Positions 3,379-52,657 are shown, counted from the stretch's first letter. The stretch is DNA of 64,000 nucleotides from an uncultured delta proteobacterium (GCA_963776075.1 CAVZLG010000010.1:104500-168499), one strand, 5' to 3'. Made by a program: numbers and translations. The notes: generated by a model not told the origin, from the sequence alone.

Positions 3379-3476
3379 GAAACCCGGCCGACACTGGATT
3401 TTCTCTGCGCTGACGCGAGGAGTTGTTGTTTCGGCGGCACAGTCACCTGCTCCCAAAACCTATGATGAGGAAAACA

Positions 3477-4265: not shown

Positions 4266-4325
4266 ACGGAACAGAGGGACAGGAAGAAACGGTGGACGCT
4301 ATTTTCAGTTGGTTAGAAGAGCATG

Positions 4326-6261: not shown

Positions 6262-6287
6262 TCATCTTTACTGGTGAGAAACCCAGG

Positions 6288-7161: not shown

Positions 7162-7377
7162 ATGCGCAGTATCTATATCAACTCAATACTACATATCTGG
7201 AACAGCACTGGTGAAAAAGAGAAAAAAATGGTTAAGGGCCAATTGGTTAAGAAATATGGCGGCCATTATACACATGAACAATTTCTCAACTACCTGGAAC
7301 AAAAATATCTCTCACGATTCTCATCGTATGTACTACCCTCACTACCTGAGAGAAGGGCTATATGCTATCAGGCCTGA
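7162..7377 (+). CDS. hypothetical small protein (71 aa)
   Basis: ATG preceded by TGGAGG at 5-nt spacing. No recognisable domain; AT-rich surroundings. Confidence 0.3.
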   Translation: MRSIYINSILHIWNSTGEKEKKMVKGQLVKKYGGHYTHEQFLNYLEQKYLSRFSSYVLPSLPERRAICYQA

Positions 7378-7437
7378 AATGACTTGCAACCTGTTATCTC
7401 TGGCGTAGCAATTGAGATTGCACAGTGGGCATAACAA

Positions 7438-8763
7438 ATGACAGCAAGGCCAACATACGAAGTGCTTGAAAAAGAGGTCCAGATTCTCAAAAAAAAACTG
7501 GCTGCTCACAAAAACCGTGGCGGTTCTGGCCAGTTACGTCAGCCGTATCTGGAAGCTATCCTCGATAAGACGAACATGCCTGTGTTTCTCAAGAACAGGG
7601 ACTATAAATACGTCTTTATAAACCACCAGTTTGAATGTCTTGCCGATGTAACCCTTGACCAGTTAGCGGGCAAGGACGATTTTGCCATATTTTCTGAACC
7701 AGTTGCTCAGCTTTTTCGTTCGCAGGATGAAGCGGTTGTCAAGCGACGAGATCTGGTCGAATTCGAGGAGACCATTTCCCTGCCAGACGGAGAGCACTCA
7801 TTTATAACAGCCAAATTCCCATTGTTTGACGGTGAGGGTAATGTGGAGGCTATCGGTGGTATTTGTACTGATATCACCGCTCGCAAACAGGCAGAAGCCA
7901 ATCTGCAGGAGGCTGAAGCAAAATACCGAGGTATCTTTGAGCATTCACCTTTGGGAATTTTACAGATTGATAAAAACGGCATCATTACAGCAAGCAATGA
8001 AAAATTAGCAGAAATTCTCGGTTCCAGCGTTGACAAACTTGTTGGTTTTGATCTCCTGCAGTCGGTAACTGATGAGAACATAAGAGCAGCCACCACCTCT
8101 GTACTTTCCGGGCAGATAGTTCATTACGAAGGGCCTTATCGTTCTCTTACAGGGACCAAAAAGGTATACCTTCGCGGTGTTTTTTCTCCAATTTTTTCAG
8201 GTGACGGATCAATAGTTGCCGCTATTGGCATCATTGAAGATATAACAGGAAGAAAGGATACAGAAGAAGCACTGCGGCGAGCTCATAACGAGCTCGAACA
8301 GCGGGTTACAGATCGTACTGCCCAACTGGACCGGAAAACAGAACGACTCAAGGAGACAAATATCGCTCTTAAAATTCTATTGGAAAAGCGGGAAGAAGAC
8401 AAAAAGGAACTTGAAGAGAAGGTATTATTTAATGTTGAAAAACTCATTTCCCCCTACCTGGAAAAACTGAACATGAAACAGAGCGAAGCTGCAAAAGAAA
8501 CGCTTCTGAAAATCATTCAATCAAACCTTGATGAAATCACCTCTTCTTTCGCAGAAAACCAGAAGAATTATCTCTCGAGTCTCACCCCTACCCAGATTCA
8601 AATTGCCGACCTGATAAAACATGGTCACACCACAAAAGAGATCGCCTCTCTTTTATCCCTCTCGCCATCAACCATTGCCTGCCATCGACAGGAGATTAGA
8701 AAAAGGCTTTCCTTGACGAATAAAAAAACAAATCTGCAAGCGGTTCTCACAGCCAGCTCATAA
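7438..8763 (+). CDS. PAS-PAS-coiled-coil LuxR-family transcriptional regulator
   Basis: Two PAS-like blocks (each ending ...ICTDITARK / IIEDITGRK) and a C-terminal LuxR HTH LTPTQIQIADLIKHGHTTKEIASLLSLSPSTIACHRQEIRKRL. Confidence 0.85.
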   Translation: MTARPTYEVLEKEVQILKKKLAAHKNRGGSGQLRQPYLEAILDKTNMPVFLKNRDYKYVFINHQFECLADVTLDQLAGKDDFAIFSEPVAQLFRSQDEAVVKRRDLVEFEETISLPDGEHSFITAKFPLFDGEGNVEAIGGICTDITARKQAEANLQEAEAKYRGIFEHSPLGILQIDKNGIITASNEKLAEILGSSVDKLVGFDLLQSVTDENIRAATTSVLSGQIVHYEGPYRSLTGTKKVYLRGVFSPIFSGDGSIVAAIGIIEDITGRKDTEEALRRAHNELEQRVTDRTAQLDRKTERLKETNIALKILLEKREEDKKELEEKVLFNVEKLISPYLEKLNMKQSEAAKETLLKIIQSNLDEITSSFAENQKNYLSSLTPTQIQIADLIKHGHTTKEIASLLSLSPSTIACHRQEIRKRLSLTNKKTNLQAVLTASS

Positions 8764-17106: not shown

Positions 17107-17730
17107 TCAATCGTATTGCATTTTAAACTCTTCAGGAGAAAAGCTTACTGGTACTCCCTCAAATGGTGTCATCCTTGTTTTTCTGCTTGTTTGAGCTTCT
17201 CTCAGGTCCTTTAATACCTCAATGCTTGCCAGCAACCCTTTAGAATATCTTGCCAGCCTTATGGCCATTCCTGCAATCTGGGCCAGAGCATAAACGAAAT
17301 TGACATCACTTAACGTAAACTCCCACGGTTCAGAAGTATAGACACGAAGCGCTCCCATCGTTTTTTGATTTACCTGAATTGGAACTGACAGAATCGAAGC
17401 AATGCCTTCTTTTTCTGCTTCCTCAGGGTATTGCAGTCTGGGATCATTTATGGCATCAGAAATTGCAACAGGACCATCCTCAAGAGACTGGGCGATCGAA
17501 TGCAAAGCGCTGAGTGGCCCCTTATTTAGATATTCATCGCTTAGACCGTATGAAGCGGCAACATTCAGTTCGTCAGTTGTCCGGTTGAGCAGAAACAACG
17601 CACATCCTTTTATATCCAGTGCTGTTTTAATTCCCTCTACCGTCATCAGTGCAACTTCTTCAGGTTCTTTCGAGTGAGAAATTGTATTGGCTACTTTCAG
17701 AAATATTTCGTAGTTCAGTTGCTCTTTCAT
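17107..17730 (-). CDS. stand-alone GAF-domain protein
   Basis: 207 aa with a GAF-like pattern (ALFLLNRTTDELNVAASYGL...ILSVPIQVNQKTMGALRVYT). AAAGGAGG RBS. Confidence 0.8.
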   Translation of the reverse strand: MKEQLNYEIFLKVANTISHSKEPEEVALMTVEGIKTALDIKGCALFLLNRTTDELNVAASYGLSDEYLNKGPLSALHSIAQSLEDGPVAISDAINDPRLQYPEEAEKEGIASILSVPIQVNQKTMGALRVYTSEPWEFTLSDVNFVYALAQIAGMAIRLARYSKGLLASIEVLKDLREAQTSRKTRMTPFEGVPVSFSPEEFKMQYD

Positions 17731-17842: not shown

Positions 17843-17945
17843 CATAAAAAGCCGAACTGCCTTCTTCTGAGGCAGCTCGGCTTTCTCTAGAGACCCGTGG
17901 CTTTCCGTCCCCGCTTTACAGTGGGTTTGGCTCTTGCTCAATGTA
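17843..17945 (-). promoter_or_regulatory. candidate c-di-GMP-I (GEMM-I)-like riboswitch with intrinsic terminator
   Basis: Minus-strand RNA: GAGCCAAACC-CACU-GUAA-AGCGGG-GACGGAAAGCCACGGGUCU..., then AAAGCCGAGCUGCCU-cagaaga-AGGCAGUUCGGCUUUUU. The G-U pair in the stem is valid only on the minus strand. TTGACA (17985-17990) and TAGTAT (17961-17966) lie upstream at 18-nt spacing. Confidence 0.5.
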
Positions 17946-30854: not shown

Positions 30855-31089
30855 TTCTCCTCCATGAACGCTACATTCATCCTGGTCATCCCTTAGCTGG
30901 AAACAAATGAGATTTCTTTATCATTCTTTAAACTGGATCGAACAGGATTATAAAGCATCTGATCCGAATTTAAAGGAACATAATAGTTTTTATCGCAGAT
31001 TTTCAATCTACAACCGTTTCTGAAAGGCACGGCCAATTCCACTGGTTGACATTGATGATACATTGCTATATATCTGAACCTTCATTGAA

Positions 31090-31166
31090 ACGTGCAGGGG
31101 TGGCTATAGCCTGAGATGATACCCGTTGAACCTGACCTGGTTAATGCCAGCGTAGGGAAATGCATC
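31090..31166 (+). promoter_or_regulatory. TPP (THI-box) riboswitch
   Basis: gcaGGGGTGgctatagcCTGAGAtgatACCCgtTGAACCTGAcCTGGtTAATGCCAGCGTAGGGAAatgc matches the THI element core and lies upstream of thiM. Confidence 0.85.
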
Positions 31167-31259
31167 GGTCAGAATTATTTCCTCATTTGACTTACCTGCC
31201 CATCTCGGCCAAAGCTGTTAACATTCCTGGAAATATTAACTCCAGATGAAGAGGGGCTC

Positions 31260-32066
31260 ATGTCTGATATCGCTGACAAAACTGCAGAAAATTTACAGCT
31301 TATCCGTCAGGACAAGCCGTTGATCCACAATATCACCAACTTCGTGGTAATGAACTACACCGCCAATGTTCTGCTGGCAATGGGCGCTTCGCCCGTTATG
31401 GCACACGCCAGGGAAGAGGTTGAGGAGATGGTTTCTTATGCCGGCTCTCTTGTATTAAACATCGGCACGCTCTCCGAAATATGGATAGAGTCCATGATTA
31501 AAGCGGGCAGAAAAGCTACAAAAACTGGAACTCCAATTATTTTTGATCCGGTTGGCTCAGGCGCTACTCATTTCCGAACCAGCACTGCGAAAACCCTGCT
31601 CGATGAAACCGTTGTCAGTATCATTCGGGGCAACAGTTCTGAAATTCTCTCACTTGGAGACCCTGATTCCATGACCAGGGGAGTTGATGCCATGCATACG
31701 GTGGATGATGCCGCCGAGACCAGCTCACAGCTGGCAACAGAACTTGGCACGACCCTGGCAATAACAGGTCCCGTGGATCTCATTACAGATGGTGTACGGG
31801 TCGTTCGTGTTGAAAACGGTGACGCGATGATGCCCTACGTTACCGGAACCGGATGTTCAGCAACAGCAGTAATTGGAGCCTTTGCAGCGGTTGAAAAGAA
31901 CATGGTTGCTGCCGCGGCAGGAGGACTGGCCTTTATCGGCCTTGCCGGTGAAAAAGCGGCAGAAACCAGCCGTGGTCCTGGCAGTTTTATGATTGCACTG
32001 CTCGACGCTCTTTACAACCTGACACCTGAAGAAGTAAAGGCAGGGTGCCGGATCGTCGAGGCGTAA
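31260..32066 (+). CDS. thiM: hydroxyethylthiazole kinase
   Basis: PLIHNITNFVVMNYTANVLLAMGASPVMAHA... Confidence 0.9.
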   Translation: MSDIADKTAENLQLIRQDKPLIHNITNFVVMNYTANVLLAMGASPVMAHAREEVEEMVSYAGSLVLNIGTLSEIWIESMIKAGRKATKTGTPIIFDPVGSGATHFRTSTAKTLLDETVVSIIRGNSSEILSLGDPDSMTRGVDAMHTVDDAAETSSQLATELGTTLAITGPVDLITDGVRVVRVENGDAMMPYVTGTGCSATAVIGAFAAVEKNMVAAAAGGLAFIGLAGEKAAETSRGPGSFMIALLDALYNLTPEEVKAGCRIVEA

Positions 32067-32078
32067 AAGCGTCCATGA

Positions 32079-32216
32079 GCAAAGGGCCCTCATAACGGTG
32101 CTGACGTGAAAAAGACAGGATCCGATGGCATTGCCGTGGTCTCTGCAATCGTTTCAGCACCGTGCCCTGAGACTGCTGCCAGGAATGTAAGCAAGATGCA
32201 TTGCCGTGCTCATTAA
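32079..32216 (+). pseudogene. thiE: remnant of thiamine-phosphate synthase (ThiE) C-terminus, about 45 codons, no start codon
   Basis: Own translation: AKGPHNGADVKKTGSDGIAVVSAIVSAPCPETAARNVSKMHCRAH. Compare the ThiE C-terminus GADG(I/V)(A/S)V(V/I)SAI..A.DP..AA. The frame opens directly after a TGA at 32076. Confidence 0.5.
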
Positions 32217-32229
32217 GGAGATTTTTCTG

Positions 32230-33051
32230 ATGACTGAACAAGACAAACACTATTTCAGAGTATTAACAATTGCAGGATCCGACAGTGGGGGCGGCGCCGG
32301 CATTCAGGCCGATCTTAAAACCATTTCGGCGAACAACTGTTACGGTATGTCTGTTATTACTGCACTGACAGCACAGAACACCGTAGGAGTAACCGGTATA
32401 CATCCGGTTCCTGTCAGCTTTGTTGAAAAACAGCTTGAAGCGGTCCTCACGGATATCGGTACCGACGGTATCAAAATAGGAATGTTGTTCTCTGCTGAGC
32501 TGATTACAACCGTTGCCGAATCGCTTAAAAAGTTCAAATGCAGCAATATCGTACTCGATCCGGTAATGATTGCTCAGAGTGGAGACCCACTCATTGAAGA
32601 CGATGCCGTCAAGGCCCTGAAAACTTCACTGATCCCTATTGCCGATCTTATTACGCCCAATCTTCCCGAAGCCTCTGCCCTGCTTGACCGGGATATCAGG
32701 ACCCGTGATGACCTGGAGCAGGCAGCGATTGATCTCCAGAAACTCGGCTGCACGAATGTTTTAATTAAAGGCGGGCATCTGGAAGAGGGAGAAGACAGCG
32801 ACGACCTGCTTTATCTGGGAAATGAAGCAAGGACGATTACCTTTCCCGTTAAGCGTATCGAGACAAACAACAATCATGGAACCGGCTGTACACTCTCATC
32901 AGCTATCGCCTCAGGGCTTGCCAGGGGGTATACAACAGAGCAGGCGGTGAGAGAGGCCAAAGAATATATAACAGGGGCCATTGCCGCTGGAGCCGCATAC
33001 AAGATAGGCCGTGGCCACGGTCCGGTACATCATTTTTTTCGTTCGTATTGA
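32230..33051 (+). CDS. thiD: hydroxymethylpyrimidine/phosphomethylpyrimidine kinase
   Basis: VLTIAGSDSGGGAGIQADLKT. AAGGAG lies 9 nt upstream of ATG 32230 (ORF-track start 32206). Confidence 0.9.
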   Translation: MTEQDKHYFRVLTIAGSDSGGGAGIQADLKTISANNCYGMSVITALTAQNTVGVTGIHPVPVSFVEKQLEAVLTDIGTDGIKIGMLFSAELITTVAESLKKFKCSNIVLDPVMIAQSGDPLIEDDAVKALKTSLIPIADLITPNLPEASALLDRDIRTRDDLEQAAIDLQKLGCTNVLIKGGHLEEGEDSDDLLYLGNEARTITFPVKRIETNNNHGTGCTLSSAIASGLARGYTTEQAVREAKEYITGAIAAGAAYKIGRGHGPVHHFFRSY

Positions 33052-33099
33052 TCCCGCAAGATCGTGAACCCGGATCGAGGCCAGCCTGGTAGTTTGATT

Positions 33100-33825
33100 A
33101 TGCCATCAGTTATGCTCGACAAGGTGTCTCTTTCCTTTGAAGGGACAACCATATTTGATCAACTATCACTGCAGATAGAAGGCGGCAAGTGCACCTGCAT
33201 CCTCGGACCAAGCGGCTGCGGTAAATCCACCCTCCTGAAGATGATCTCGGGTAATCGTTCAATTAAGTACCAGGGATCGATCCGGATAACTCCCGGGCCT
33301 GCAGATACAAATCTCACCGCCTGGATGAGCCAGAACGATCTGCTTCTTCCCTGGATGAGCTTAGAAGACAACGTGCTGCTTGGAGCAAAGCTTCGCTTTG
33401 AAGTTTCATCTTCTCTGCGCGAAAAAGGAGCCCGACTTCTTGAGGAAGCAGGATTGGGCGCATATAGAAAATCACTGCCATCAGCCCTTTCCGGTGGAAT
33501 GCGGCAGCGGGTTGCACTGCTGCGGACGCTCATGGAAGATCGTCCGGTCCTGCTCATGGACGAGCCGTTTTCCGCACTTGATGCCCTCACCAGGATCAAG
33601 CTGCAGCAGCTGGCAGCCAAACTGACCAAGGGCAAGACCGTACTGCTGGTAACCCATGATCCACTCGAAGCGCTCCGGCTGGGAGACAAAATACTGGTTC
33701 TGGCAGGTACCCCTGCAAGCGTGGCGGCATCCTTCGAACCTGAAGGGAAATCTCCCCGGGATGCAGGCGACAGTGTCGTCAGCGAGCAATATCCGCTGCT
33801 GCTGAAAACACTGATGAAACAATAA
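33100..33825 (+). CDS. ABC transporter ATP-binding protein (NitT/TauT family, ThiZ-like)
   Basis: Walker A GPSGCGKST, signature LSGGMRQR, Walker B LLMDEPFSALD. Start is either 33064 (GTG) or 33100 (ATG). Confidence 0.85.
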   Translation: MPSVMLDKVSLSFEGTTIFDQLSLQIEGGKCTCILGPSGCGKSTLLKMISGNRSIKYQGSIRITPGPADTNLTAWMSQNDLLLPWMSLEDNVLLGAKLRFEVSSSLREKGARLLEEAGLGAYRKSLPSALSGGMRQRVALLRTLMEDRPVLLMDEPFSALDALTRIKLQQLAAKLTKGKTVLLVTHDPLEALRLGDKILVLAGTPASVAASFEPEGKSPRDAGDSVVSEQYPLLLKTLMKQ

Positions 33826-33871
33826 AACATAAAGGAATCGGCGGCTCTATCAAGCGCTCAAAAATGACCAG

Positions 33872-34636
33872 ATGATACTTTTCAGACTCGCGATACTTGG
33901 GGCAGGCTTTACGCTGCTCTGGCAACTGCTCGTCAGTATCACCGGGGCGCCCCACTACATTCTCCCCGGTCCGGGGCCGGTCTGTAACGCCCTGATTAAC
34001 AACTGGTCAACGCTTTTTAACCACCTGCAGATCACTGTTACCGAAATATTAGCCGGCCTTGCGATTGGAACCCTCCTCGGTTGCTCTTGCGCCCTGGCCA
34101 TGTTCCTGTCTCCCCACCTGAAGAGATGGATGCTGCCGGTACTCATTATCAGTCAGGCAATTCCTGTTTTTGCTCTTGCGCCAATACTCGTTCTGTGGTT
34201 CGGATATGGAATGGCCTCCAAGATAGCCATGGCTGTTCTGATCATCTTTTTCCCGGTAGCCTCTTCATTCTACCACGGTTTGCGTAGAACGGAACCCGAC
34301 CTTCTCGAACTTGCCCGGGTTATGGATGCAGGTACTTATGGCGTCATGCGCTTTATTGTGATCCCATCCGCCATACCCGCTTTTGCTGCAGGCCTCAGGG
34401 TTGCTGTGGCCGTTGCACCAATCGGCGCTATCGTCGGTGAATGGGTAGGATCCAGTGCCGGCCTTGGTTACTATATGCTGCACGCGAATGCCCGCATGCA
34501 GATAGACAATATGTTTGCGGCACTGACACTGCTGTCGGTTGCCTCGTTATCCATCTATTTTTCAATAGATTTCCTGTTAAACAAATTAATTTACTGGGAA
34601 ACCCCACAGGAGTTAAATCATGCACGTGGTATGTAA
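33872..34636 (+). CDS. ABC transporter permease (ThiX-like)
   Basis: 254 aa, 6 TM, with an EAA-like loop (ELARVMDAGTYGVMRFIVIPSAIP). Confidence 0.85.
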   Translation: MILFRLAILGAGFTLLWQLLVSITGAPHYILPGPGPVCNALINNWSTLFNHLQITVTEILAGLAIGTLLGCSCALAMFLSPHLKRWMLPVLIISQAIPVFALAPILVLWFGYGMASKIAMAVLIIFFPVASSFYHGLRRTEPDLLELARVMDAGTYGVMRFIVIPSAIPAFAAGLRVAVAVAPIGAIVGEWVGSSAGLGYYMLHANARMQIDNMFAALTLLSVASLSIYFSIDFLLNKLIYWETPQELNHARGM

Positions 34637-35576
34637 AAAAGTTTTGTTATTTTTTCTTTTCTTCTCTGTATCAATGACAGCAACGGCCCTGGCAGAAACC
34701 AAGATGACCGTTCTGCTCGACTGGTTTTTAAACCCCGATCATGCTCCGCTTATAGTGGCCAAGGAGAAGGGCTACTTTAAAGAACAGGGACTTGACGTCA
34801 CCTTTATTGCTCCTGCCAACCCGAATGACCCGCCCAAAATCGTGGCCGCAGGGAAAGCTGACATAGCGGTGTCTTACCAGCACCAGCACCAGATGCAGGT
34901 AGACCAGGGGTTGCCGCTGGTCAGAATAGCCACTGTCGTGGCAACACCACTGAATTCCCTCGTGGTTCTGGCCGACAGCGATATTAAGACCATAGCGGAT
35001 CTCAAGGGCAAGACCATCGGTTACTCCGTCGGGGGCTTTGAAACAGTACTTCTCAAGGTGATGCTCGGAAAAGCGGGGTTACAGCTCTCAGATGTCACGC
35101 TGGTCAATGTGAACTTCTCACTTTCACCATCATTATTTGCCGGCAAGACCGATGCCGTTATTGGGGCGTTTCGAAACTTTGAACTCAACCAGATGGATAT
35201 CGAAAAACGTCCGGGCAGGGCCTTTTATGTCGAAGAATATGGCATCCCGTCATACGACGAGCTGATCCTGGTAGCCAACAAGGACCGGCTTGATGATAAA
35301 AATCTGCGTAAGTTTGTTAATGCACTGGAAGCTGGCGTCCAGTTTCTGCTGAATCATCCTGAAGAAAGCTGGGACCTTTTTGTGAAGGGCGAACGGGCGG
35401 AATTAAACGATGAACTGAACAAACGGGCATGGAGTGATACACTGCCGCGATTTGCCCTCAGGCCCGGCGCACTCGACAAGAACCGCTATAATCGGTTTGC
35501 CCAATTTCTTCTTGAACAGGAGATGGTCAAGTCAGTCCCCCCCCTTGAAAGCTGGGCCGTGGAACTCCCATATTGA
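34620..35576 (+). CDS. NMT1/THI5-like periplasmic substrate-binding protein (ThiY-like pyrimidine precursor binding)
   Basis: Signal peptide, then LDWFLNPDHAPLIVAKEKGYFKEQGLDV. Sits in the TPP-riboswitch operon. Confidence 0.8.
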   Translation: MHVVCKKVLLFFLFFSVSMTATALAETKMTVLLDWFLNPDHAPLIVAKEKGYFKEQGLDVTFIAPANPNDPPKIVAAGKADIAVSYQHQHQMQVDQGLPLVRIATVVATPLNSLVVLADSDIKTIADLKGKTIGYSVGGFETVLLKVMLGKAGLQLSDVTLVNVNFSLSPSLFAGKTDAVIGAFRNFELNQMDIEKRPGRAFYVEEYGIPSYDELILVANKDRLDDKNLRKFVNALEAGVQFLLNHPEESWDLFVKGERAELNDELNKRAWSDTLPRFALRPGALDKNRYNRFAQFLLEQEMVKSVPPLESWAVELPY

Positions 35577-36332: not shown

Positions 36333-37601
36333 TTATCCAAGAACCTCAAATGCCTTGGTGAAAAAATCCTCTTTCCCAAAATTACCGGATTTGAGTGCCA
36401 ATGATAAATTTACTGTTCCAATGGTTTTGCACCATGGTACCCCCGGATCGATCTCTTTTCCGATTCGTAAGCCGCTGACACCAAGGCTTTTTACAACCGC
36501 GCCCGAAGTCTCCCCTCCTGCAACAACCAGTCGTTCGACCCCGCGCTTGATAATTTCACCTGCAATCACTCCCATAGCTTCTTCAACGAGAAGACCGGCA
36601 GTATCTCTGCCAAGTTTTTTCTGCACTTCAGCCACGTCAGCAGGGTCTGCAGAGGAATAGACCAGAAATGGTTCATCTACTCCCTGGTTATCGATCCACG
36701 TCAGCACCTGTTCGAGTACCTTCTCCTTTTCTTCATATAAAGCGATAGCATCGAGGCTGAAGCTTGGCCACTTTTCTTTTACAGCTGCGACCTGAGCCCT
36801 GGTCATTGCAGAACAGCTGCCCGATAATATTGCAGCGCGTCCTTTTGCCTGCCACTCATGGCAGCCATCGTCAACCTGTAAATCTCCTGATTTCCTAAAA
36901 TTTTCTGGCAGACCAAGGGCGACACCTGATCCACCGGTAATGAGTTTCAGGTCCTTGGATGCTTCACCGATTGAGTATAGATTACTGTCATTTACAGCAT
37001 CAACGATGGCGAATTTTTTCCCAGAAGAGATGAGTTGATCATATTTTGCCTTTATTGCCTGGGCTCCGGCTTCCACATCCTCAAAAGCGACAAGTCCGAC
37101 CTCGTTATCTGTCTGTTTTCCAAGAAAACGAACCAGGTTTGCATCGGTCATCGGAGTCAGTGGATGATCTTTCATACTCGATTCACTGAGTAACAGGTCT
37201 CCAACAAAAAGATGCCCTTTATAGATCGTTCTGCCATTTGTCGGAAAAGCTGGACAGGCAATAGTAAAAGGATCGCCAAGGTTATCGAGCACGGCCTCTG
37301 CAACTGGCCCGATATTTCCCTGGGCCGTTGAATCAAAGGTTGAGCAGTACTTGAAAAAGAACTGTTTCGTACCCAGTGATTTGAGCCACTCAAGAGCTTC
37401 TATCGATTCCTGAATCGCCTCGTCTGCCGGCGTTGAACGAGATTTAAGGGCGACGATAATAGCAGCTGCATTTCCAGGATCAAAACCTTCGGCAGGAATG
37501 CCAAATGTTTGAATCGTCGGCATACCTGCCATGACAAGTGTATTAGCAAGATCCGTCGCACCCGTAAAATCGTCTGCTATCGCTCCAAGAAGTACTCCCA
37601 T
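36333..37601 (-). CDS. otnK: four-carbon acid sugar kinase family protein (YgbK/OtnK-like)
   Basis: N-terminal LGAIADDFTGATDLAN is the DUF1537/OtnK signature. GGAGG lies upstream of ATG 37601. Confidence 0.7.
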   Translation of the reverse strand: MGVLLGAIADDFTGATDLANTLVMAGMPTIQTFGIPAEGFDPGNAAAIIVALKSRSTPADEAIQESIEALEWLKSLGTKQFFFKYCSTFDSTAQGNIGPVAEAVLDNLGDPFTIACPAFPTNGRTIYKGHLFVGDLLLSESSMKDHPLTPMTDANLVRFLGKQTDNEVGLVAFEDVEAGAQAIKAKYDQLISSGKKFAIVDAVNDSNLYSIGEASKDLKLITGGSGVALGLPENFRKSGDLQVDDGCHEWQAKGRAAILSGSCSAMTRAQVAAVKEKWPSFSLDAIALYEEKEKVLEQVLTWIDNQGVDEPFLVYSSADPADVAEVQKKLGRDTAGLLVEEAMGVIAGEIIKRGVERLVVAGGETSGAVVKSLGVSGLRIGKEIDPGVPWCKTIGTVNLSLALKSGNFGKEDFFTKAFEVLG

Positions 37602-37813
37602 ACTGCCAACCTCCATCCACATTAATGACGTTTTAATTCGTCTGATTCATCATCCTGGCTCCAATTGTCTCGATCAGTATAGTTAATCTTTTTTAAAGTC
37701 AACGACAAGGGTTCACAGAAGTTGAGGGATCAATTTTATTTTTTGAGCTTATGATGATAGGATGATATCATCTATCCAAACGTTATATTTGTGAAATCAA
37801 ATCTGGGATTTTA

Positions 37814-44303: not shown

Positions 44304-46316
44304 ATGGCTACACGTGAAGAATTGGAAGAAAAATACGACGACTGCCAGGAAACTCCTGACTATGTGGCCGTTGCGCTGGAGGCCTTCAGCGATCTCGATG
44401 ACAAGGATTGGGCTGTCGAGTTGTACGAAGAAGGCGCAGACTGGGCAGCGACAGCCCAGGACTTTATGGCGCTTTCCAACGGTGCACGCGTAATCCTCGG
44501 GGACACTGAAAAGGCAGCCGAGTATTTCGAACAGGCCAAAGGGGCCTGCAGCAATGCCGGTGAGTTGATCGACCTGGCAGTTTCAGCAGCCGAAAACGAC
44601 AACAAAGAAGGTGCCAAAGAGATGTTCATGGCCGCAGCCGAGAAGGCTACCAAGGCTGCAGAATTTCTGAGTTTATCCAAAAAAATTAATGAGGCACTCG
44701 GCGACAAGGAACTGGCCAGAGAAGTGAGCGCTAAGGCCAAAGAGCAATGCTCGACCCCTGCCGATTTTGCCGAATTGGCCCGTGCGCTGATCAACGATTT
44801 TGATGATCCGGATCAGGCCAAGCAGGTTTTAACTCAGGCGGCTGGATCCTGTAAAAGCGGTGCAGACTTTGCCGCCCTTGCAGCAAGCGCTGGTGAGCTG
44901 TTTCCGGACAGCGACCTTGGCAGCACGCTTTTCCAATCTGCTGAGGAGCAAATCGACTCTGGTCTTGAAATGGGTAGTCTTGCCAAAGAGGCGGTGGCTG
45001 CGTCAGGTGACAAAGAGAATGGTTCCAGGCTTTTCAATAAAGCCAAGGATATGATCGACAGCGGCGAAGACCTGGTTAAACTTGCCGCAATGATCCAGGA
45101 ATCACTTGAGGATAAGGAACTGGTCCTGGAAACCTATAAAAAAGCCGGCGGCTACTTCACCTCCTACAAGGAAATCATGAATCTGGGCGATTCCGTTCTC
45201 AAAGATACCGGCAATAAAGAGTATGCCGGCGAGATCTATCTGAAAGCAGCGGAGACTGATCCGGAAACCCCGAAGCTTGTCAGTGTAGCCGAGAAGCTGG
45301 CTGATGAAATTGGTGACACCGACGGCGCCGTAAAGGTTCTGCACCAGGCCGAAAATTCGGTCAAAACGAACTCCGAGTTCCAATCCATGGCCGATGCGGT
45401 CCTGAAATACGCAACTGATCAAAAGTGGTTGGATGATATCGGTCTGCAGAAGGAAAAGCGTGCAGAGAACGCAAAGCTCTATGACGATTACATCAAGCGC
45501 GAACAGGAGGCCCTGAGTGGGGCCACTTTATGGAATCTTGGTCATGAGGTGATGCAGACAACAGGTGATCACCCTTATGTTCGCAAGCTCTTCGCCAATG
45601 CTGAAAAGCTGGCCAACTATTTTGACGACTACATGAATCTGGCGGATTTAATTGCCGGCGACCTCAACGACAAGGAATGGGCTGATCGAATTTACACGGA
45701 TCAATTTGAATCAGCAGGGGAGTTTGTCAAGAAAAAGAATATCGCCGCTGCGACGATGAAGAACCTGAAAGATGAAGCGAAGGTTAGGGGCTATTTTAAA
45801 AAGATGGAAGATGAATGCGATCAAACCTCTGATTATATCAAGCTGGGGACCTCTGTAAACAACGTTCTCGGTGACGAGGGATGGACAAGGACACTGTATC
45901 AAGAGGCACAGGTTAACTGCGATGACCGATTCAGCCTGTTGACTCTGGCTGGTAAAATCCTTGAAAATCTCGGCGACGAGAAATGGGCCGGGGAGTTATA
46001 TGGAAAGGTCGCCGATCAGTGTGCTGACAGCTACCAGTATGAACATCTTTTCCATATCGTTGAGCATCAAAGTTCTAATAAGGAAACGCTGAGACGACTT
46101 TATAAAAAAGCGGAGGAAAGACTTTCCAACGCCAAGGATTTCTCCTCGCTTGCCGAGAGTGTCGCACGAAGATTCGATTCCCAGGACTGGGCCCGAACGA
46201 TCTACAAAAAAGCAGTGGAAGCACCTGATATCCAGAAGTTCAAATTTGATGTGGCAGCGAGTGTAGAAAAAGTGCTTGCGGACCATCAGCTGGCAGGTAC
46301 CATACGCAACAGCTGA
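44304..46316 (+). CDS. cytoplasmic tandem-repeat protein, about 19 TPR-like 35-residue repeats
   Basis: Recurrent xDFxxLAxxIxxxLGDKEWAxxLYxKAxxxC units (e.g. GDEKWAGELYGKVADQC, NDKEWADRIYTDQFESA). No signal peptide. GAGGAG RBS. Confidence 0.7.
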   Translation: MATREELEEKYDDCQETPDYVAVALEAFSDLDDKDWAVELYEEGADWAATAQDFMALSNGARVILGDTEKAAEYFEQAKGACSNAGELIDLAVSAAENDNKEGAKEMFMAAAEKATKAAEFLSLSKKINEALGDKELAREVSAKAKEQCSTPADFAELARALINDFDDPDQAKQVLTQAAGSCKSGADFAALAASAGELFPDSDLGSTLFQSAEEQIDSGLEMGSLAKEAVAASGDKENGSRLFNKAKDMIDSGEDLVKLAAMIQESLEDKELVLETYKKAGGYFTSYKEIMNLGDSVLKDTGNKEYAGEIYLKAAETDPETPKLVSVAEKLADEIGDTDGAVKVLHQAENSVKTNSEFQSMADAVLKYATDQKWLDDIGLQKEKRAENAKLYDDYIKREQEALSGATLWNLGHEVMQTTGDHPYVRKLFANAEKLANYFDDYMNLADLIAGDLNDKEWADRIYTDQFESAGEFVKKKNIAAATMKNLKDEAKVRGYFKKMEDECDQTSDYIKLGTSVNNVLGDEGWTRTLYQEAQVNCDDRFSLLTLAGKILENLGDEKWAGELYGKVADQCADSYQYEHLFHIVEHQSSNKETLRRLYKKAEERLSNAKDFSSLAESVARRFDSQDWARTIYKKAVEAPDIQKFKFDVAASVEKVLADHQLAGTIRNS

Positions 46317-46513: not shown

Positions 46514-48100
46514 CTATTTCTTTTTACCCTCACCCTCTATATATCGTACAATGCTGTTGATATTAACAGGTATATCCGTGTTGATTTCAAGTGCAGAGTT
46601 CTGCTCCTGTAAAGAGAGCGGTTCGCCGGTTTTAAGCTGATGCTCGAGAATAGCCACAGTCGCATCAGAAACATCGCTGCCATGCAGGGTTCGCTCTTCA
46701 ACCCGGCTTCTCAGCGTCTCAACAGAAGCCGTATACGATAGAATAAGAAATCGAACGTTCAGCGATCTCGATAAACCGGCAAACAGCTGCCTTTGTGATG
46801 ATTTCAGGTTGGCAGCATCAATAATAACAGAATATCCGGCAGTCAGCAGCGTGCGTGCAAGCTCAACCAGACGGTTATAGGTTTTTTGGGAGGCTTCGGG
46901 GCTATAAATTCCCTTTCCGGTGCCAAACTCCATGCCGTCATTGTTATCTTTGCCTAAAAGCCGTTTACGCTCCACGTCCGATCGCAGCTGTATTGCTGCT
47001 ATTCTGTCGCTAAGAGCGCTGGCTCCTGCGGATTTTCCAGTCCCCGAAACCCCGTGGTTTATTATCAGCACCGGAGATGTGATGCGGGTATATTTTTTCG
47101 CCAGGTTGAGGTACTGGTAAAAATCCTCGACGGTCTGGACATACTCTTTTGAGCCGGGTCGCTCCTGAGCTGTGCGCAGGATATCGACTTTGGCCCGCAC
47201 GAGCGCACGGTACACCTTATAAAATCTGAGCAGTCTCAATCCCTCAAAGTCACCGGTAATTTGCATATACTCATTGAGAAAATGCGTGGCCAGCGGAGCT
47301 TTCTTCCTCGCCTCAAGATCCATGATCAAAAAAGCGATTTCGCTGATTACATCGATAAAGCGAAGACCTCTGTTAAACTCAATACAATCAAAGATCAGTA
47401 TATCTTCCTGCAGCAGCGCTATATTCCGCAAATGCATATCGCCGTGACATTCCCTCACAAATCCAAGAACCTTGCGCTCCTCGATTACCGGCACCACGGT
47501 TTCGAGTTGTTTCATACTCCACTGTTGGAGACTATCCAGTTGCACTATTAACTGCTGGTCATGAATACAGTTACGTATATGTTGAAAATTTTCCATCACC
47601 GTTTTCCGAACATGCTCAACGCCGCCAAAATCGCTATCCGGGGGAGCAGGGCTCACCGACAGATGGAACTGTGCTACCGTTCCAGCCAGTTGAGCGATGA
47701 TGGCATTATCGAGCCCCCCTTCTGGCGGCAGACAGTCAAACTGCGCTGCCTGAGGGAATTGGATCATTCTCACGGCATACTCTATCGCAGGACCAGGTCC
47801 GTCCAGCTCAGGGTTCTCTTTTGAACCACTGATTTTCACCAGTCCCAAATACAATTGCGGCGCCAGCCGACTATTCAATCGTAGTTCTTCAAGGCAGTTA
47901 TAACGACGTTTTTCAAGGGTTGAAAAATCAAGAAAACCAAAGTTGACCGGTTTTTTTATTTTATAGACAAAGTCCCCGGTCAAGAGCACCCAGGAAATAT
48001 GGGTCTCGATCACCTCGAACCGACTTACCGGATAATCATAGAGCTGAGGGTTTTGAAGTGACTTGATCAACGCCTGCTGGTTGGATAAAGAACCATTCAC
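46514..48100 (-). CDS. bifunctional aminoglycoside-phosphotransferase-like kinase / P-loop (AAA) kinase protein
   Basis: N-terminal APH/choline-kinase-like block HGDMHLRNI...FDCIEF. C-terminal Walker A NHGVSGTGKSAGA. Confidence 0.75.
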   Translation of the reverse strand: MNGSLSNQQALIKSLQNPQLYDYPVSRFEVIETHISWVLLTGDFVYKIKKPVNFGFLDFSTLEKRRYNCLEELRLNSRLAPQLYLGLVKISGSKENPELDGPGPAIEYAVRMIQFPQAAQFDCLPPEGGLDNAIIAQLAGTVAQFHLSVSPAPPDSDFGGVEHVRKTVMENFQHIRNCIHDQQLIVQLDSLQQWSMKQLETVVPVIEERKVLGFVRECHGDMHLRNIALLQEDILIFDCIEFNRGLRFIDVISEIAFLIMDLEARKKAPLATHFLNEYMQITGDFEGLRLLRFYKVYRALVRAKVDILRTAQERPGSKEYVQTVEDFYQYLNLAKKYTRITSPVLIINHGVSGTGKSAGASALSDRIAAIQLRSDVERKRLLGKDNNDGMEFGTGKGIYSPEASQKTYNRLVELARTLLTAGYSVIIDAANLKSSQRQLFAGLSRSLNVRFLILSYTASVETLRSRVEERTLHGSDVSDATVAILEHQLKTGEPLSLQEQNSALEINTDIPVNINSIVRYIEGEGKKK

Positions 48101-48435
48101 GGGAATTCACCTCTCTGGAAAAAAAAGTGATATCTACCCTGTATCTATCATAAAATGTAATCATTTCTGATAGAATGGACAGCGCTGCTCCGTTAAAAGA
48201 CGCCCTTTATTATCACCTCTGAACAGATTTTCACTGACAAGGCTTTGTAAGTAATCTATAAAAATGCTGGGCAGCAACTGGTATTGTACATTTTCTGTTA
48301 AATTTCTGAACGTTAGAATTGTTACTTTATCTGGAAATTTTCTGTTGATGTTTATACACCAGTGTTTATAAACTTGGTGTGGTATTCTATTTTGTCTGGA
48401 CAAATAATTTTCTATGGAAAAAGAGCAGATTGGGT

Positions 48436-50049
48436 ATGGACCGACCTTATTGTATTAAATTAGTACTATTTGATTTTGACGGAACATTAACCTTACCCGG
48501 AGCTATCGATTTTGCTCTCATTCGCCAACGAATTGGTTGTCCCGGCGATATTGCGATACTGGAATTTATCCAAACTCTTTCAGATGAATCGCAGCGCCAG
48601 AAGGCCATCGGTGAAGTTTGTGACCATGAAATGGCTGCAGCTCGTAAAGCAAGGCCCAACCTGGGGGCTGAGAGGTTACTTGTCGAATTAAAAGCACTTG
48701 GAGTAAAAGTAGGTCTGATAAGCCGAAATATCCGGATAGCGATAGAACGCGCGCTGGCTAATTTTGAACACACGCTGATTGAAGACTTCGACCTGGTTAT
48801 CTCACGAGATGATCTCATTGCGCCAAAACCGGAGCCTGATGGGATTACATATGTTTCTGAATATTTTGCCATTCCACCTGAAGAAATTCTGGTGGTGGGC
48901 GATTTTGTCTTTGATATAGAAGCGGGACGCCGCGCCGGGGCTTTGACGGCATTTATAACCAATGGCAATAAGCTGGATATTCCTGAAAAACCGACTTTTG
49001 TTATTCACCAGCTGTCCGAGCTTTTACCACTTGTTCAGATGGGAATTCCACTTCAGGGCGGCAAGCTGCCTCAACACCTGCTGGATATGTTCCTGAATGA
49101 ATTTGAATGGGATGACCCATCAGTACTGAACTGGCCGGGAGTGGGCGAAGATACAGCAGCGGTGGATGTGAAAAAAGAGGACGTTCTCGTTATCACATCA
49201 GATCCGATCACCTTTGCCGCGGCTTCTATCGGCGAATACGCAGTCATTGTTAATGCCAACGATATTGCTACCTCCGGGGGGACTCCCCGCTGGCTGTTAA
49301 CCTCCCTGCTTTTCCCGGTTAATTCCACCGCCTCAGAAATACGTTGTGTGATGACAGAACTGGCTTCTGTTTGTAACCGTTATAATATCACCTTATGTGG
49401 CGGCCACACCGAAATCACCGACGCGGTGATTCGTCCGGTGGTCACCGGTATGATGGCAGGCTGTGTGCAACGAGATCATTTATTAGACAAGAAACAGATG
49501 CGCTCCGGGGATCACATTCTATTGACGAAAGGTGTTGCAATAGAGGGTACTGCCATCATTGCCCGGGACTTCGAAAAACAATTGATAGAATATGGGGTAC
49601 ATGAGGAGACAATTAGAAAAGCCAAAGGTTTTATTTCCAGGATAAGCGTAATTGAAGAAGCACAAATGGCTGCTGCCATGGATGGCGTCAAATCCCTGCA
49701 CGACATCACTGAAGGTGGGTTGGCAACATCCCTGGAGGAGTTCTCATTTGCCGGAGGGTATGGAATAGAAGTACAGGTACCACAGATCCCGATCCTGCAG
49801 GAAACCGAGGCAGTTTGCCTGCCCTTCAATCTCAATCCCCTTGGCTTGATAGGATCGGGAAGCCTGTTGATCTGCTGTCATCCCGATGTTTCGAAGCCGC
49901 TACGGCGCCAACTTTTGTCTGCCGGGATTGACTGTACTCATATTGGTACAGTGACGGGTAAAGGACCCGGGATTGTTGCAATGGATGAGGAAAAGATCGT
50001 ACCCTGGCCTCGTTTTGCTGTAGACGAGATCACCCGCCTGTTTTCATGA
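48436..50049 (+). CDS. fusion protein: HAD-superfamily hydrolase plus PurM/AIR-synthase-related (HypE/ThiL-like) ATP-binding domains
   Basis: HAD motif I LFDFDGTLT and motif IV VVGDFVFDIEAGRRAG. Then GVGEDTAAVDV...ITSDPITF...AVIVNANDIATSGGTP...LCGGHTEIT...DITEGGLATSL (AIRS/AIRS_C pattern). Confidence 0.75.
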   Translation: MDRPYCIKLVLFDFDGTLTLPGAIDFALIRQRIGCPGDIAILEFIQTLSDESQRQKAIGEVCDHEMAAARKARPNLGAERLLVELKALGVKVGLISRNIRIAIERALANFEHTLIEDFDLVISRDDLIAPKPEPDGITYVSEYFAIPPEEILVVGDFVFDIEAGRRAGALTAFITNGNKLDIPEKPTFVIHQLSELLPLVQMGIPLQGGKLPQHLLDMFLNEFEWDDPSVLNWPGVGEDTAAVDVKKEDVLVITSDPITFAAASIGEYAVIVNANDIATSGGTPRWLLTSLLFPVNSTASEIRCVMTELASVCNRYNITLCGGHTEITDAVIRPVVTGMMAGCVQRDHLLDKKQMRSGDHILLTKGVAIEGTAIIARDFEKQLIEYGVHEETIRKAKGFISRISVIEEAQMAAAMDGVKSLHDITEGGLATSLEEFSFAGGYGIEVQVPQIPILQETEAVCLPFNLNPLGLIGSGSLLICCHPDVSKPLRRQLLSAGIDCTHIGTVTGKGPGIVAMDEEKIVPWPRFAVDEITRLFS

Positions 50050-51368
50050 TGGAAACATTACGTTCCTGCACCTCTTTTTTTAATGACTATGAGCAGCGAG
50101 AGGATGCTTTCAGGCAACTGGTAGACTTCAAATTAGCCCGACGGTATAGAGGTCCTGCGCTGTTCTGGAAAGATTTCAGTCTCATCTCCCGTAATATTCT
50201 TACATCTCGGGGAAATGATTCTATCTCCTTTATTACCAGTAACCCCAGGGATTGCCTGGCATTTGCTACAGCCAGACAAGTTTTAATGGCTGCGTTTATG
50301 TCTGCTGGTAAAACGGCCGATGAAAAGCAGGTATTGGAAGTCGTGTCTCGTTTTGGGATTGCCGATCAACTCAGCCAGCCCATTCGCACGCTCTCTGGCG
50401 GCGAAACGGTTAAACTGGCTCTTGCCAAAACCTATGTGGCGATGGAATCCTGTTCCAATGTCGTAATTTCAAGCCCCTTTACCTGGTTGGCAGCCGGAAA
50501 CCGTCACTTACTGGAAGAAATAGTCAGGCAGGATGGTGGTTCGGGCAGAAAAATCTCTATTCTGGCCCTGGACGGTGAGGATGATCTCTCCCCAGTAGCA
50601 CCAGACGATCCTTTCAGTCAGCCCACTCAAGGTGGGCTGACTTTTTCGTTGAATATGTCCCAAGTCAGGATTCCCCTCGCCTTGTCCTTAAACCCACTCG
50701 CTGACACTGTACCTCATGCGGCCATTGATGATGCCTGCTTGCAGCTGGAATCACCCTGCATGGTTACGGGAGACAACGGCCAGGGAAAGAGCCTGGTTGC
50801 GCGTGCTCTCGCCGGCTCACTGACCTTTCGCGGCAGGGCTTTCATAAAAGGAGCTGATGCGGAAGGAACAGCGAGTCTTCTTTTTCAGGATGTCCTCACT
50901 CAAACCCTGTTGCGTTCCTTTGACGCACTGGCTGGAGGAGGAAGAGGTGTGAGTAGACAGGCAATTCTCGCCATTTACGCAAAAATCAAGGATGAGTACA
51001 GGCTGGCTGCTGAAAGAAAAAGATTGAGTGAACTGTCTCAAATCAACGATTCAATAGAGAAACAGCATACACTGCTGGATATCAAGGTTATTCTTGTGGC
51101 TGCTCGTCTGGCAGCCTTTCCTGCTGCCCTCATTCTGGATGAACCCGATTGGGGTTTGAGTCGCCAGAGTGGTATCGCCTTTGTTTCTGCAGTATTGTCA
51201 GTGGCACATCACCAGGGAACTCCTGTAATGCTGATTTCGCACAAACCCTGGTGGCAGCCAGTGGTGCGAAGCTGCATCTCGGTTTCGCGCTCAAGTGCAG
51301 ACAGTTCAATTTCACCTGATGCCCCGGTGTTTACCGTTCACCTGGACGCCACGGAAGTGAGGCCATGA
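50046..51368 (+). CDS. fused double ABC-type ATPase with complementary degenerate halves (ECF EcfA-A'-like)
   Basis: N-half has LSGGE only (no Walker A; Walker B degenerate). C-half has GDNGQGKS, LILDEPDWGL and LISHK but no LSGGQ. ATGA overlap with both neighbours. Confidence 0.65.
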   Translation: MMETLRSCTSFFNDYEQREDAFRQLVDFKLARRYRGPALFWKDFSLISRNILTSRGNDSISFITSNPRDCLAFATARQVLMAAFMSAGKTADEKQVLEVVSRFGIADQLSQPIRTLSGGETVKLALAKTYVAMESCSNVVISSPFTWLAAGNRHLLEEIVRQDGGSGRKISILALDGEDDLSPVAPDDPFSQPTQGGLTFSLNMSQVRIPLALSLNPLADTVPHAAIDDACLQLESPCMVTGDNGQGKSLVARALAGSLTFRGRAFIKGADAEGTASLLFQDVLTQTLLRSFDALAGGGRGVSRQAILAIYAKIKDEYRLAAERKRLSELSQINDSIEKQHTLLDIKVILVAARLAAFPAALILDEPDWGLSRQSGIAFVSAVLSVAHHQGTPVMLISHKPWWQPVVRSCISVSRSSADSSISPDAPVFTVHLDATEVRP

Positions 51369-52099
51369 ACTGGAAAATAAAAGCTCTTATCATCTGGGCT
51401 CTTGCCATTCCTGCCTTTACCGGCTACCCAGTTAATCACATCCCGGGAACTTTGTTTCCTGGAGCGAGCTATGGTTGGTTAGCATACGGGGCGATGGTTT
51501 ATGCAGCCATTGTTCTGCTCATCGGTAAAAAGGTTTTAAAAGTTTCTATCGTGGTTGCCTTAACCATCGCCATTCCTCTTGTACTGCTTGGCACCTTGAT
51601 TTCGACGATCGGCCAGTTAATGAGTGGCTGGAGTCAGTCCCAACCTGCTGATTATATAGTACACTACAGCAGCTTAATGGTTACCATGCTCGTGGTAATT
51701 CCACTCGCCCTGTCAATGATTGCGGTGATACCTTTTCACCGCCTGGAACAGCAGCTCCTGCTCAGTAAGCGAGGAGTAAAAACAAGTGAGAAAATGATCC
51801 TCATGTTTCTCAGGGTATTTAGCCATATTTTCTATTTTGTGATCCCTAACATTCTCGAAGTTATCAGAGAGGAAGGTTTCCTGACCAGGAAAAGATACTT
51901 GACCGGAAGCCGGCAACACAATAAATTGCCATTGTCTCAACGGATTGGCAAGATGGTGCAAATGCTGGTAAATATAGGAGTAGACTCAATTTGCTCAGCG
52001 ATACGCTATATTCCTCTCTGGGCAGAAGAGATTTCCAAGCTCCCGGGAGATGCAGGAGCAAATCAAAATTCAGACACCGCAAAACATTCTGAAAACTGA
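51365..52099 (+). CDS. polytopic membrane protein, possible ECF T-component
   Basis: 244 aa, about 5 TM. A cytoplasmic helix region carries ...LLLSKRGVK... (xRG-like). Assignment rests on position between the ATPase and the S-component. Confidence 0.45.
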   Translation: MNWKIKALIIWALAIPAFTGYPVNHIPGTLFPGASYGWLAYGAMVYAAIVLLIGKKVLKVSIVVALTIAIPLVLLGTLISTIGQLMSGWSQSQPADYIVHYSSLMVTMLVVIPLALSMIAVIPFHRLEQQLLLSKRGVKTSEKMILMFLRVFSHIFYFVIPNILEVIREEGFLTRKRYLTGSRQHNKLPLSQRIGKMVQMLVNIGVDSICSAIRYIPLWAEEISKLPGDAGANQNSDTAKHSEN

Positions 52100-52117
52100 C
52101 GGGAAGACAATTAAGAC

Positions 52118-52657
52118 ATGAACCAAAACCGAGAAATTAATCTGTTATTTCGTGTGGGTATCATTGCCGCATTCAGTACTCTTGCTTTTATCGGTACCCT
52201 TATCATTCGAATTCCCATCCCAGTGACCGGCGGTTACTTTAATCTTGGCGACACATTTGTAATGGCTGCCGCTCTTTTATACGGTCCCCTGGTGGGCGGT
52301 TTAGTCGGGATGATCGGACCTGCGGCTGCAGATGCTGTTGGTTTCCCCCAGTTTATTTTAGCCACAGCCGTGGTCAAGGGACTCGAAGGACTGGCTGTGG
52401 GAATGATAGGGGGAAAAAGCAGGAGTGGGGGAAAACGGCAGATAGCTGCTCTTGCCGTTGGTATCGGTATTCTGGTGGCTGGTTATTATATCTTTGAGGC
52501 TATTGTCTATCCTGCCATCGCCATGACCATCCCCTTTTTCGGTGTCACAGACGCAAAAGCAGCCTTGGCCGAAATACCACCTAATTTACTCCAGGGAGTT
52601 CTGTCTGCCCTGGTAGCATATGGAATATACAAAGTGTTTACCCGCGGAGATCAATGA
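52118..52657 (+). CDS. ECF-transporter S (substrate-capture) component
   Basis: 179 aa, 6 TM; IPIPVTGGYFNLGDTFVMAAALLYGPLVGGLVGMIGPAAADAV is typical of S-components. Substrate unknown. Confidence 0.65.
   Translation: MNQNREINLLFRVGIIAAFSTLAFIGTLIIRIPIPVTGGYFNLGDTFVMAAALLYGPLVGGLVGMIGPAAADAVGFPQFILATAVVKGLEGLAVGMIGGKSRSGGKRQIAALAVGIGILVAGYYIFEAIVYPAIAMTIPFFGVTDAKAALAEIPPNLLQGVLSALVAYGIYKVFTRGDQ

Follow-up and report, generated by a model that had tools for sequence, protein, structure and literature searches.

A Desulfobacterales operon joins a candidate minimal ECF-type importer with one consensus ATP site and a HAD-PurM-like fusion enzyme

A stretch of 64,000 nucleotides (nt) from an uncultured delta proteobacterium (GCA_963776075.1 CAVZLG010000010.1:104500-168499; here termed the window, with positions counted from its first letter) contains a module of four plus-strand genes, designated g1 to g4. 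The source organism is an uncultured member of the Desulfobacterales of the sulfate-reducer type. Genes g2, g3 and g4 encode a fused twin ABC ATPase, a polytopic membrane protein and an S-component, which would together form a minimal importer of the energy-coupling factor (ECF) type (Unit A). Gene g1 encodes a bifunctional enzyme (Unit B) composed of a HAD phosphatase-type domain and a PurM-like domain. The explanation favored here is that a lineage-specific operon joins this importer and this enzyme and that both act jointly in the capture of a small compound, a reading that is given about even credence. Its transporter part is much firmer than the proposed coupling of g1. No component is categorically new, as S-components, twin nucleotide-binding domains (NBDs), HAD domains and PurM-like domains are all known. 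The undescribed aspect is their combination, i.e. an ECF-like system with one ATP site, a scaffold without detectable sequence similarity to EcfT and a conserved HAD-PurM-like fusion.

Open reading frame (ORF) calling on the window placed g1 at 48436-50049 (537 amino acids, aa), g2 at 50046-51368 (440 aa), g3 at 51365-52099 (244 aa) and g4 at 52118-52657 (179 aa). The g1/g2 junction reads TCATGATGG and the g2/g3 junction reads CCATGAACT; at both sites stop and start codon overlap within an ATGA motif (50046-50049 and 51365-51368), and a gap of 18 nt separates the stop codon of g3 from the ATG of g4. This is the arrangement that the original prediction, made by a model from the sequence alone, had described, and the two overlaps bear out the translational coupling that it proposed. 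Homologs of g1 are 537-538 aa long and cover 100% of the query. Because of these full-length homologs, the ATG at 48436 and not the upstream GTG at 48379 was assigned as the g1 start codon. Many homologs were found for each of the four genes; chance ORFs are thereby excluded and the genes are real.

The ECF-type nature of g2-g4 was confirmed, with g4 providing the clearest assignment. The g4 protein matches PF07155 (1.9e-27; the COG4720 family) and PF12822 (1.6e-8), which identifies it as an S-component in line with its initial description. Its sole sequence match in the PDB, and thus its nearest solved relative, is HmpT/PdxU2 (4hzu_S, 1.4e-8). The PF07155/COG4720 family includes the vitamin B6 carriers PdxU and PdxU2/HmpT (PMC9997740), and HmpT was reported to bind pyridoxamine rather than hydroxymethylpyrimidine (HMP) (PMC4860826). 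In the alignment of both proteins, the HmpT pocket residues E41, H84, Q87 and Y120 correspond to D45, K87, E90 and Y123 of g4, and N140 and Q143 probably correspond to N156 and Q159, which are located outside the aligned stretch. The aromatic and N/Q positions of the pocket are thus retained. Among 31 homologs of g4, the positions D45, F79, K87, E90, Y123, N156 and Q159 are invariant. At three of the six pocket positions, g4 thus carries another residue than HmpT (D for E, K for H and E for Q). It was therefore not classed as a PdxU2/HmpT orthologue, and a substrate cannot be assigned from this relationship. With 62-98% identity across loci, g4 is the best conserved of the four genes. No gene for a solute-binding protein adjoins the module in the window or in the related loci L020-L029.

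The g2 protein is strongly diverged in sequence. Pfam returned only a weak ABC_tran match at residues 79-131 and the best sequence match in the PDB has an E-value of 9e-5. An AlphaFold model of g2 (predicted local distance difference test score (pLDDT) 83; predicted template-modeling score 0.85) was used for a Foldseek search, in which approximately 430 columns were aligned to tandem-NBD proteins. The best match was 8wdb_D, DppD of Mycobacterium tuberculosis (E 1.7e-12), and further matches to tandem-NBD proteins included the methyl-coenzyme M reductase activation component A2 (8s7v_K) and ABCE1. The fold thereby contains the two ABC ATPase domains (A and A') that characterize ECF systems, though with only one consensus ATP site. 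The catalytic motifs were scored over two sets of 111 and 46 homologs and are distributed unequally between the halves. The N-terminal half (residues 1-190) contains the signature motif QPIRTLSGGE (residues 111-120, nt 50376-50405), which is invariant as QPxRTLSGGE in both sets, and lacks a Walker A motif; the position of Walker B is occupied by an invariant S-P-F. In the C-terminal half (residues 220-440), a GxNGxGKS Walker A motif (residues 242-249, nt 50769-50792), a Q-loop (residues 278-283), a Walker B/D-loop of the sequence DEPDWG (residues 365-370, nt 51138-51155) and an H-loop (H399 within ISHKPWW) are all invariant, and the signature motif is missing. As the N-terminal half keeps only the signature and the C-terminal half keeps Walker A, Walker B, Q-loop and H-loop, one composite ATP site is retained and the other one is lost. 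The protein is a twin ABC ATPase with a single consensus ATP site; the initial label of a double ABC ATPase thus holds for the twin-NBD fold but not for the number of intact sites. A separate observation concerns a hairpin at 50616-50642 on the plus strand, with a perfectly paired stem of 12 bp (AGTCAGCCCACT/AGTGGGCTGACT) and TTTTCG behind it. This terminator-like element is located within the g2 coding sequence, exactly at the linker between the ATPase halves (codons ~191-199).

The g3 protein belongs to an orphan family of 85 clusters among 1.84 billion representative proteins, all of approximately 240 aa. No match was detected in Pfam, in NCBIfam or among PDB sequences, and profiles built from 7 and 50 g3 sequences retrieved no EcfT among PDB sequences at E <= 10, so that by these sequence searches g3 does not belong to the CbiQ/EcfT family (PF02361). 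The structural model (pLDDT 88.7) contains four N-terminal transmembrane helices followed by two long helices of 35-40 residues (140-179 and 190-224). Residues R150, E169, E170, W219 and E222 are among the invariant positions. A Foldseek search against 350,542 PDB chains returned two EcfT chains as the top two matches, 5d3m_D (E 0.45, template-modeling score 0.32) and 4hzu_T (E 1.4, template-modeling score 0.22), neither of which is significant. The likeness of the modeled fold to ECF T subunits is thus suggestive but not significant. The protein described earlier as a polytopic membrane protein thus matches none of the known T components in sequence.

Domain searches with hidden Markov models divided g1 into the two parts that had been originally predicted, a HAD domain and an AIR-synthase-related domain. 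A HAD-IA phosphatase-type domain at residues 7-172 (nt 48454-48951; HAD_2/Hydrolase, E 2e-19) is followed by an AIRS domain of the PurM superfamily at residues 237-344 (nt 49144-49467; E 3e-17) and an AIRS_C domain at residues 357-512 (nt 49504-49971; E 4e-18). The closest PDB match of the HAD part is 2ybd_A, an uncharacterized HAD protein from Pseudomonas (1e-20, residues 7-175). For the PurM-like part, HypE is the best match (2i6r, 1.6e-15), ahead of SelD and ThiL. The NCBIfam equivalog cut-offs were reached by neither part. The scores were 99.1 bits for ThiL (TIGR01379; cut-off 184), 93.8 bits for HypE (TIGR02124; cut-off 251.6) and 81.1 bits for SelD (TIGR00476; cut-off 125), and the HAD domain scored below every equivalog cut-off. 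In 123 homologs, the HAD motifs FDFDGTLT, PKP and GDxxxD are at least 95% conserved, which leaves motifs I (DxDGT), III (K) and IV (GDxxxD) of a HAD-IA protein intact. In the region of motif II, R97 and N98 are conserved and S96 falls under the conservation thresholds, so that this motif was not separately confirmed. The PurM-superfamily motifs GEDxxA, DPITF, NDxxTxGxxPRW, LCGGHTEITD and HDxTEGG are conserved in the same homologs. As the motifs of both catalytic centers are conserved, both look functional. The N-terminal L..GK.P loop of the PurM-like part aligns with the GCK loop of SelD; it reads QGGK where SelD has C-G-C-K and thus keeps the lysine and lacks the cysteine. The C-terminus reads ...DEITRLFS and contains no cysteine. 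Both features that g1 had been said to lack, the C-terminal cysteine of HypE and the Cys/Sec of SelD, are indeed missing. By these sequence comparisons, g1 represents a distinct, unnamed branch of the HypE/SelD/ThiL group. The family comprises more than 4000 sequences from Desulfobacterales and Acidobacteriota, in which the HAD domain is always fused to the PurM-like domain. In agreement with the original prediction, no characterized pathway was identified for this system. NCBIfam contains no equivalog, the source annotations of g1 are limited to 'HAD-IA hydrolase' or 'HypE', and literature searches on a link between HAD, AIR-synthase and ECF proteins, on PF07155/COG4720 and on PDB 2YBD/3R09 found no characterization.

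An alignment-based scan of metagenome contigs for g2 homologs yielded 80 loci. Genes g2, g3 and g4 occur together in every locus with enough downstream sequence and g3 is always located between the other two. As far as the searches reach, this trio appears to be restricted to the Desulfobacterales. Among all loci retrieved, fifty were informative for the position of g1, as they either contain g1 directly upstream of the trio or provide at least 600 nt of upstream sequence without it. The gene is present in 10 of these (L020-L023, L030, L031, L035, L036, L073 and L086) and absent from the remaining 40. In the 10 linked loci the flanking genes are unrelated, g1 is 61-84% identical and the ATGA overlap or a close abutment of g1 and g2 is kept. 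The four-gene module, whose order the original prediction had proposed to compare across genomes, is thus real and inherited, and the refuting condition named there, a lack of synteny in every related genome, does not hold. One of these loci, L021, shows a UbiD-like gene, two radical SAM/CofH_C genes and a VitK2_biosynth gene (3040-7970) that precede the g1 homolog with a 30-nt gap. The latter three genes resemble menaquinone genes of the futalosine pathway, and this arrangement was seen in a single locus.

Other genes take the place of g1 in front of the trio elsewhere. A membrane protein of the YhhN family (PF07947, a lysoplasmalogenase-type family) is encoded directly upstream of g2 in 12 loci, and its stop codon often overlaps the g2 start. 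These loci (for example L055 1258-1911, L060 787-1440, L047 281-934 and L027 6080-6733) form a separate branch of the transporter family with a second tightly coupled partner. In five loci (L067 10-1695, L072, L078, L082 and L083) a DUF6909 protein of 561-612 aa is encoded directly upstream; their g2 genes represent the most divergent branch (37-40% identity). An FAD oxidoreductase (DAO) gene located behind an aspartate kinase gene precedes the trio in another 4-5 loci. Conversely, g1 homologs of approximately 50% identity are found in Desulfobacterales and Acidobacteriota with no transporter within 8 kb. At 16 such uncoupled loci, only a TetR regulator recurs as a partner (adjoining g1 in 6 of 16; best NCBIfam match FadR-like) and other neighbors are scattered. 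Among them are AMP-binding ligases immediately next to g1 (L009, L026), a GDPD gene (L003) and acetyl-CoA hydrolase/transferase genes (L007, L010). Downstream of the g1 homologs, L010 (6449-11251) and L013 (12767-17539) also contain hypF-hypC-hypD-hypE-like sets, which were assigned by ORF sizes and a HypE match; their separate HypE proteins are 26% identical to the PurM-like part of g1. A neighbor-joining tree places the coupled g1 genes in a single clade within the uncoupled ones; the linkage therefore counts as one event. The claim of a transporter that is private or dedicated to the fusion enzyme was not upheld, given that most trios lack g1, most of the g1 family lacks a transporter and the linkage counts only once.

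The 336-nt intergenic region upstream of g1 contains a single block (48292-48382, plus strand) that aligns among the window, L020, L030 and L031. This conserved footprint holds repeated TTTCTG and GTTTATA words and a putative promoter-like pair on the plus strand, TTGATG (48345-48350) and TATAAA(C) (48367-48373) with a 16-17 nt spacer, although a consensus promoter scan did not call this pair in the block. If the pair is used, it would imply a g1 leader of approximately 55 nt, which is too short for a typical riboswitch. An Rfam search of 47900-48600 returned no match, even at E <= 10, and at gathering score neither the module region of the window nor that of six related loci yielded one. The initial statement that no THI box or other riboswitch is visible upstream thus holds under a permissive scan. 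A genuine thiamine pyrophosphate (TPP) riboswitch is located 17 kb from the module at 31086-31178 (plus strand; 62 bits, above the Rfam gathering score). It is followed at 31260-35576 on the same strand by thiM (HK family), thiD (Phos_pyr_kin) and genes for an ABC ATPase, a permease and an NMT1/THI5-like binding protein, an operon with a ThiXYZ-type importer for pyrimidine precursors. Salvage of thiamine precursors is therefore encoded and regulated apart from the module.

A mechanism can be proposed from these parts. The membrane-embedded S-component g4 would bind a small, polar and probably heteroaromatic micronutrient and g3 may serve as the membrane scaffold on which the S-component topples. 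The cycle would be powered by g2 through one composite ATP site, which combines Walker A, Walker B and H-loop of the C-terminal half with the LSGGE signature of the N-terminal half. In this lineage, the cytoplasmic bifunctional enzyme g1 would share a transcript with the importer, to which it would also be coupled in translation. Jointly, enzyme and importer would most likely capture the imported compound: the PurM-like domain would transfer a phosphoryl group at the expense of ATP, and the HAD domain would set or reverse the phosphorylation state. The best guess for the substrate is a vitamin-B6-like vitamer or a related precursor. Co-expression of g1 and the importer is indicated by their translational coupling in this lineage, which renders a functional link between them plausible. 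The originally suggested import of a vitamin precursor with subsequent activation or dephosphorylation is likewise no more than a plausible hypothesis. Several observations weigh against this proposal. No enzyme of the PurM superfamily is known to phosphorylate an alcohol such as a B6 vitamer. Half of the compared HmpT pocket residues are changed in g4, neither the sequence nor the fold of g3 is significantly similar to that of EcfT, and no regulatory RNA or known regulator links the operon to any vitamin. In addition, g1 is absent from four fifths of the informative trio loci and homologs half identical to it lack a nearby transporter, while its phylogeny is consistent with a single linkage event followed by vertical inheritance rather than a recurrent association. 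The synteny data thus weakened the attraction of a private importer for the fusion enzyme. A more far-reaching version of the proposal is considered improbable. It would make g1 an unrecognized type of salvage enzyme that traps a B6-like or heteroaromatic micronutrient in an ATP-dependent manner, buffered by its own phosphatase and supplied by a minimal ECF transporter of a new class with a scaffold unrelated to EcfT in sequence and a single-site fused ATPase.

The most serious alternative is that the adjacency of g1 and the trio is a historical accident, in which one rearrangement placed g1 ahead of a transporter whose cargo the enzyme never meets. In most genomes, g1 would then be under TetR control and near genes of acyl or lipid metabolism. 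This explanation is tentatively held to be possible, though less probable than the joint function proposed above. It agrees with the nested position of the coupled clade, with the FadR-like TetR genes and the ligase, GDPD and acetyl-CoA hydrolase/transferase genes beside uncoupled g1 genes, and with the pairing of the trio with YhhN, DUF6909 or DAO proteins elsewhere. However, only few lipid-type neighbors were seen, and genes of this kind abound in Desulfobacterales genomes. Furthermore, the overlap or tight abutment of g1 and g2 persists down to 61% g1 identity among entirely different flanks, and its retention despite this divergence suggests selection for co-expression.

The remaining alternatives assign the module to known pathways and are regarded as very unlikely. 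In a thiamine/HMP salvage system, an HmpT-like protein would import HMP or thiamine, the PurM-like domain would synthesize the diphosphate as ThiL does and the HAD domain would be a thiamine-monophosphate phosphatase. ThiL is indeed the top NCBIfam match of g1 and the nearest solved S-component was first named HmpT, but the ThiL score is far below its cut-off and almost equaled by that of HypE, and HmpT itself was found to bind pyridoxamine and not HMP in the cited work. There is no TPP riboswitch upstream in the window or in the six related loci, and the genuine one drives thiM, thiD and the ThiXYZ-type importer instead. If the same thiamine monophosphate were the substrate of both a kinase and a phosphatase, a futile cycle would moreover result, and the relative L025 contains a separate 307-aa AIRS gene near g1. 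Similarly little probability is assigned to a riboflavin importer, for which g1 might act on flavin phosphates by analogy with plant flavin mononucleotide (FMN) hydrolase/riboflavin kinase fusions. The Pfam name of PF07155 and a weak NCBIfam match to a model of ECF-type riboflavin S-components point in this direction; the latter amounts to only 25.7 bits against a cut-off of 99, Rfam detected no FMN riboswitch and no PDB match to RibU was obtained at E <= 10. The characterized PF07155 members cited in the literature are B6 carriers (PMC9997740). The least probable reading is that g1 is a HypE-type hydrogenase maturation factor. It is suggested by the JGI label 'HypE' of several g1 homologs, by 2i6r as the best PDB match of the AIRS domain and by hypFCDE genes 3-7 kb from g1 homologs in the two Acidobacteriota loci L010 and L013. 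Both of these loci carry their own separate HypE, though, hyp genes are missing from the surroundings of the module both in the window and in the coupled loci, and the HypE score of g1 lies far below the cut-off. The absence of the C-terminal cysteine, the carrier of the carbamoyl and cyano group, essentially refutes this reading.

Should the trio work as an importer, one ATP site and a scaffold without recognizable EcfT sequence would suffice for ECF-type transport, which would bear on the question of how ATP hydrolysis drives the toppling of the S-component. The operon link in this lineage is also the only available clue to the substrate of the large g1 family. Both the transporters and the alternative kinases for vitamin B6 are recognized gaps in knowledge (PMC9997740), and a B6-like role, if true, would be relevant for vitamin exchange in anoxic sediments.

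Several features in the vicinity of the module were recorded as well. A 528-aa protein is encoded divergently at 46514-48100 (minus strand) and had been described as an APH-like/P-loop double kinase. Its C-terminal part holds an AAA_33 P-loop kinase domain (6e-28) and its N-terminal part gave a weak APH-like match, in agreement with this description, but membership in the system was rejected, as the gene is absent beside the module in all related loci. A highly acidic, repetitive and helical protein of 670 aa with only marginal matches to tetratricopeptide-like repeats and no family assignment is encoded at 44304-46316 (plus strand). A gene of the DUF1537-type (SBD_N + NBD_C) four-carbon acid-sugar kinase family is found at 36336-37622 (minus strand), 11 kb from the module, and no link between the two was established. 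Members of this family have been tied to the recycling of 4-hydroxythreonine and pyridoxal phosphate precursors according to literature cited in PMC9997740. Finally, a c-di-GMP-I-GGC riboswitch aptamer (17867-17940, minus strand; 62 bits, E 3e-12) is located upstream of a 207-aa ORF (17107-17730, minus strand).

The module can be compared with several known systems. The closest one for g4 is ECF-HmpT/PdxU2 of Lactobacillus brevis (PDB 4HZU), whose S-component is a member of the same Pfam family and can be aligned with g4 but differs at half of the pocket residues. As in group I ECF transporters such as BioMNY and CbiMNQO, the S-component gene of the trio is accompanied in the operon by genes for a dedicated ATPase and a membrane protein, and a solute-binding protein is missing. 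In canonical systems, EcfA and EcfA' are two unfused chains of approximately 280 aa, with two consensus sites between them. In contrast to these ATPases of group I and group II systems, g2 combines both in one 440-aa chain with one ATP site. The membrane partner g3 has EcfT chains as its two best, though not significant, fold matches and differs from CbiQ/EcfT (PF02361) as an orphan family without detectable sequence similarity. With HypE, SelD, ThiL, PurM and PurL, g1 shares the AIRS and AIRS_C domains and the DxTxGG motif. It further shares DPxxF and NDxA with HypE and GGH and the N-terminal Gly-Lys loop with SelD, but lacks the catalytic cysteine or Cys/Sec positions of both, and it differs from all enzymes of the PurM superfamily by its additional N-terminal HAD domain and by reaching no family cut-off. 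Motifs I, III and IV are alike in g1 and the HAD-IA phosphatases (phosphoglycolate phosphatase, PpaX and MupP type; PDB 2YBD/3R09), from which it is set apart by scores below the equivalog cut-offs and by the fusion to a PurM-like domain. A vitamin-related fusion of a HAD phosphatase to an ATP-dependent phosphoryl-transfer domain is known from the plant FMN hydrolase/riboflavin kinase. The architecture of g1 is no more than analogous to that of this enzyme, as the kinase fold differs and no shared substrate has been demonstrated.

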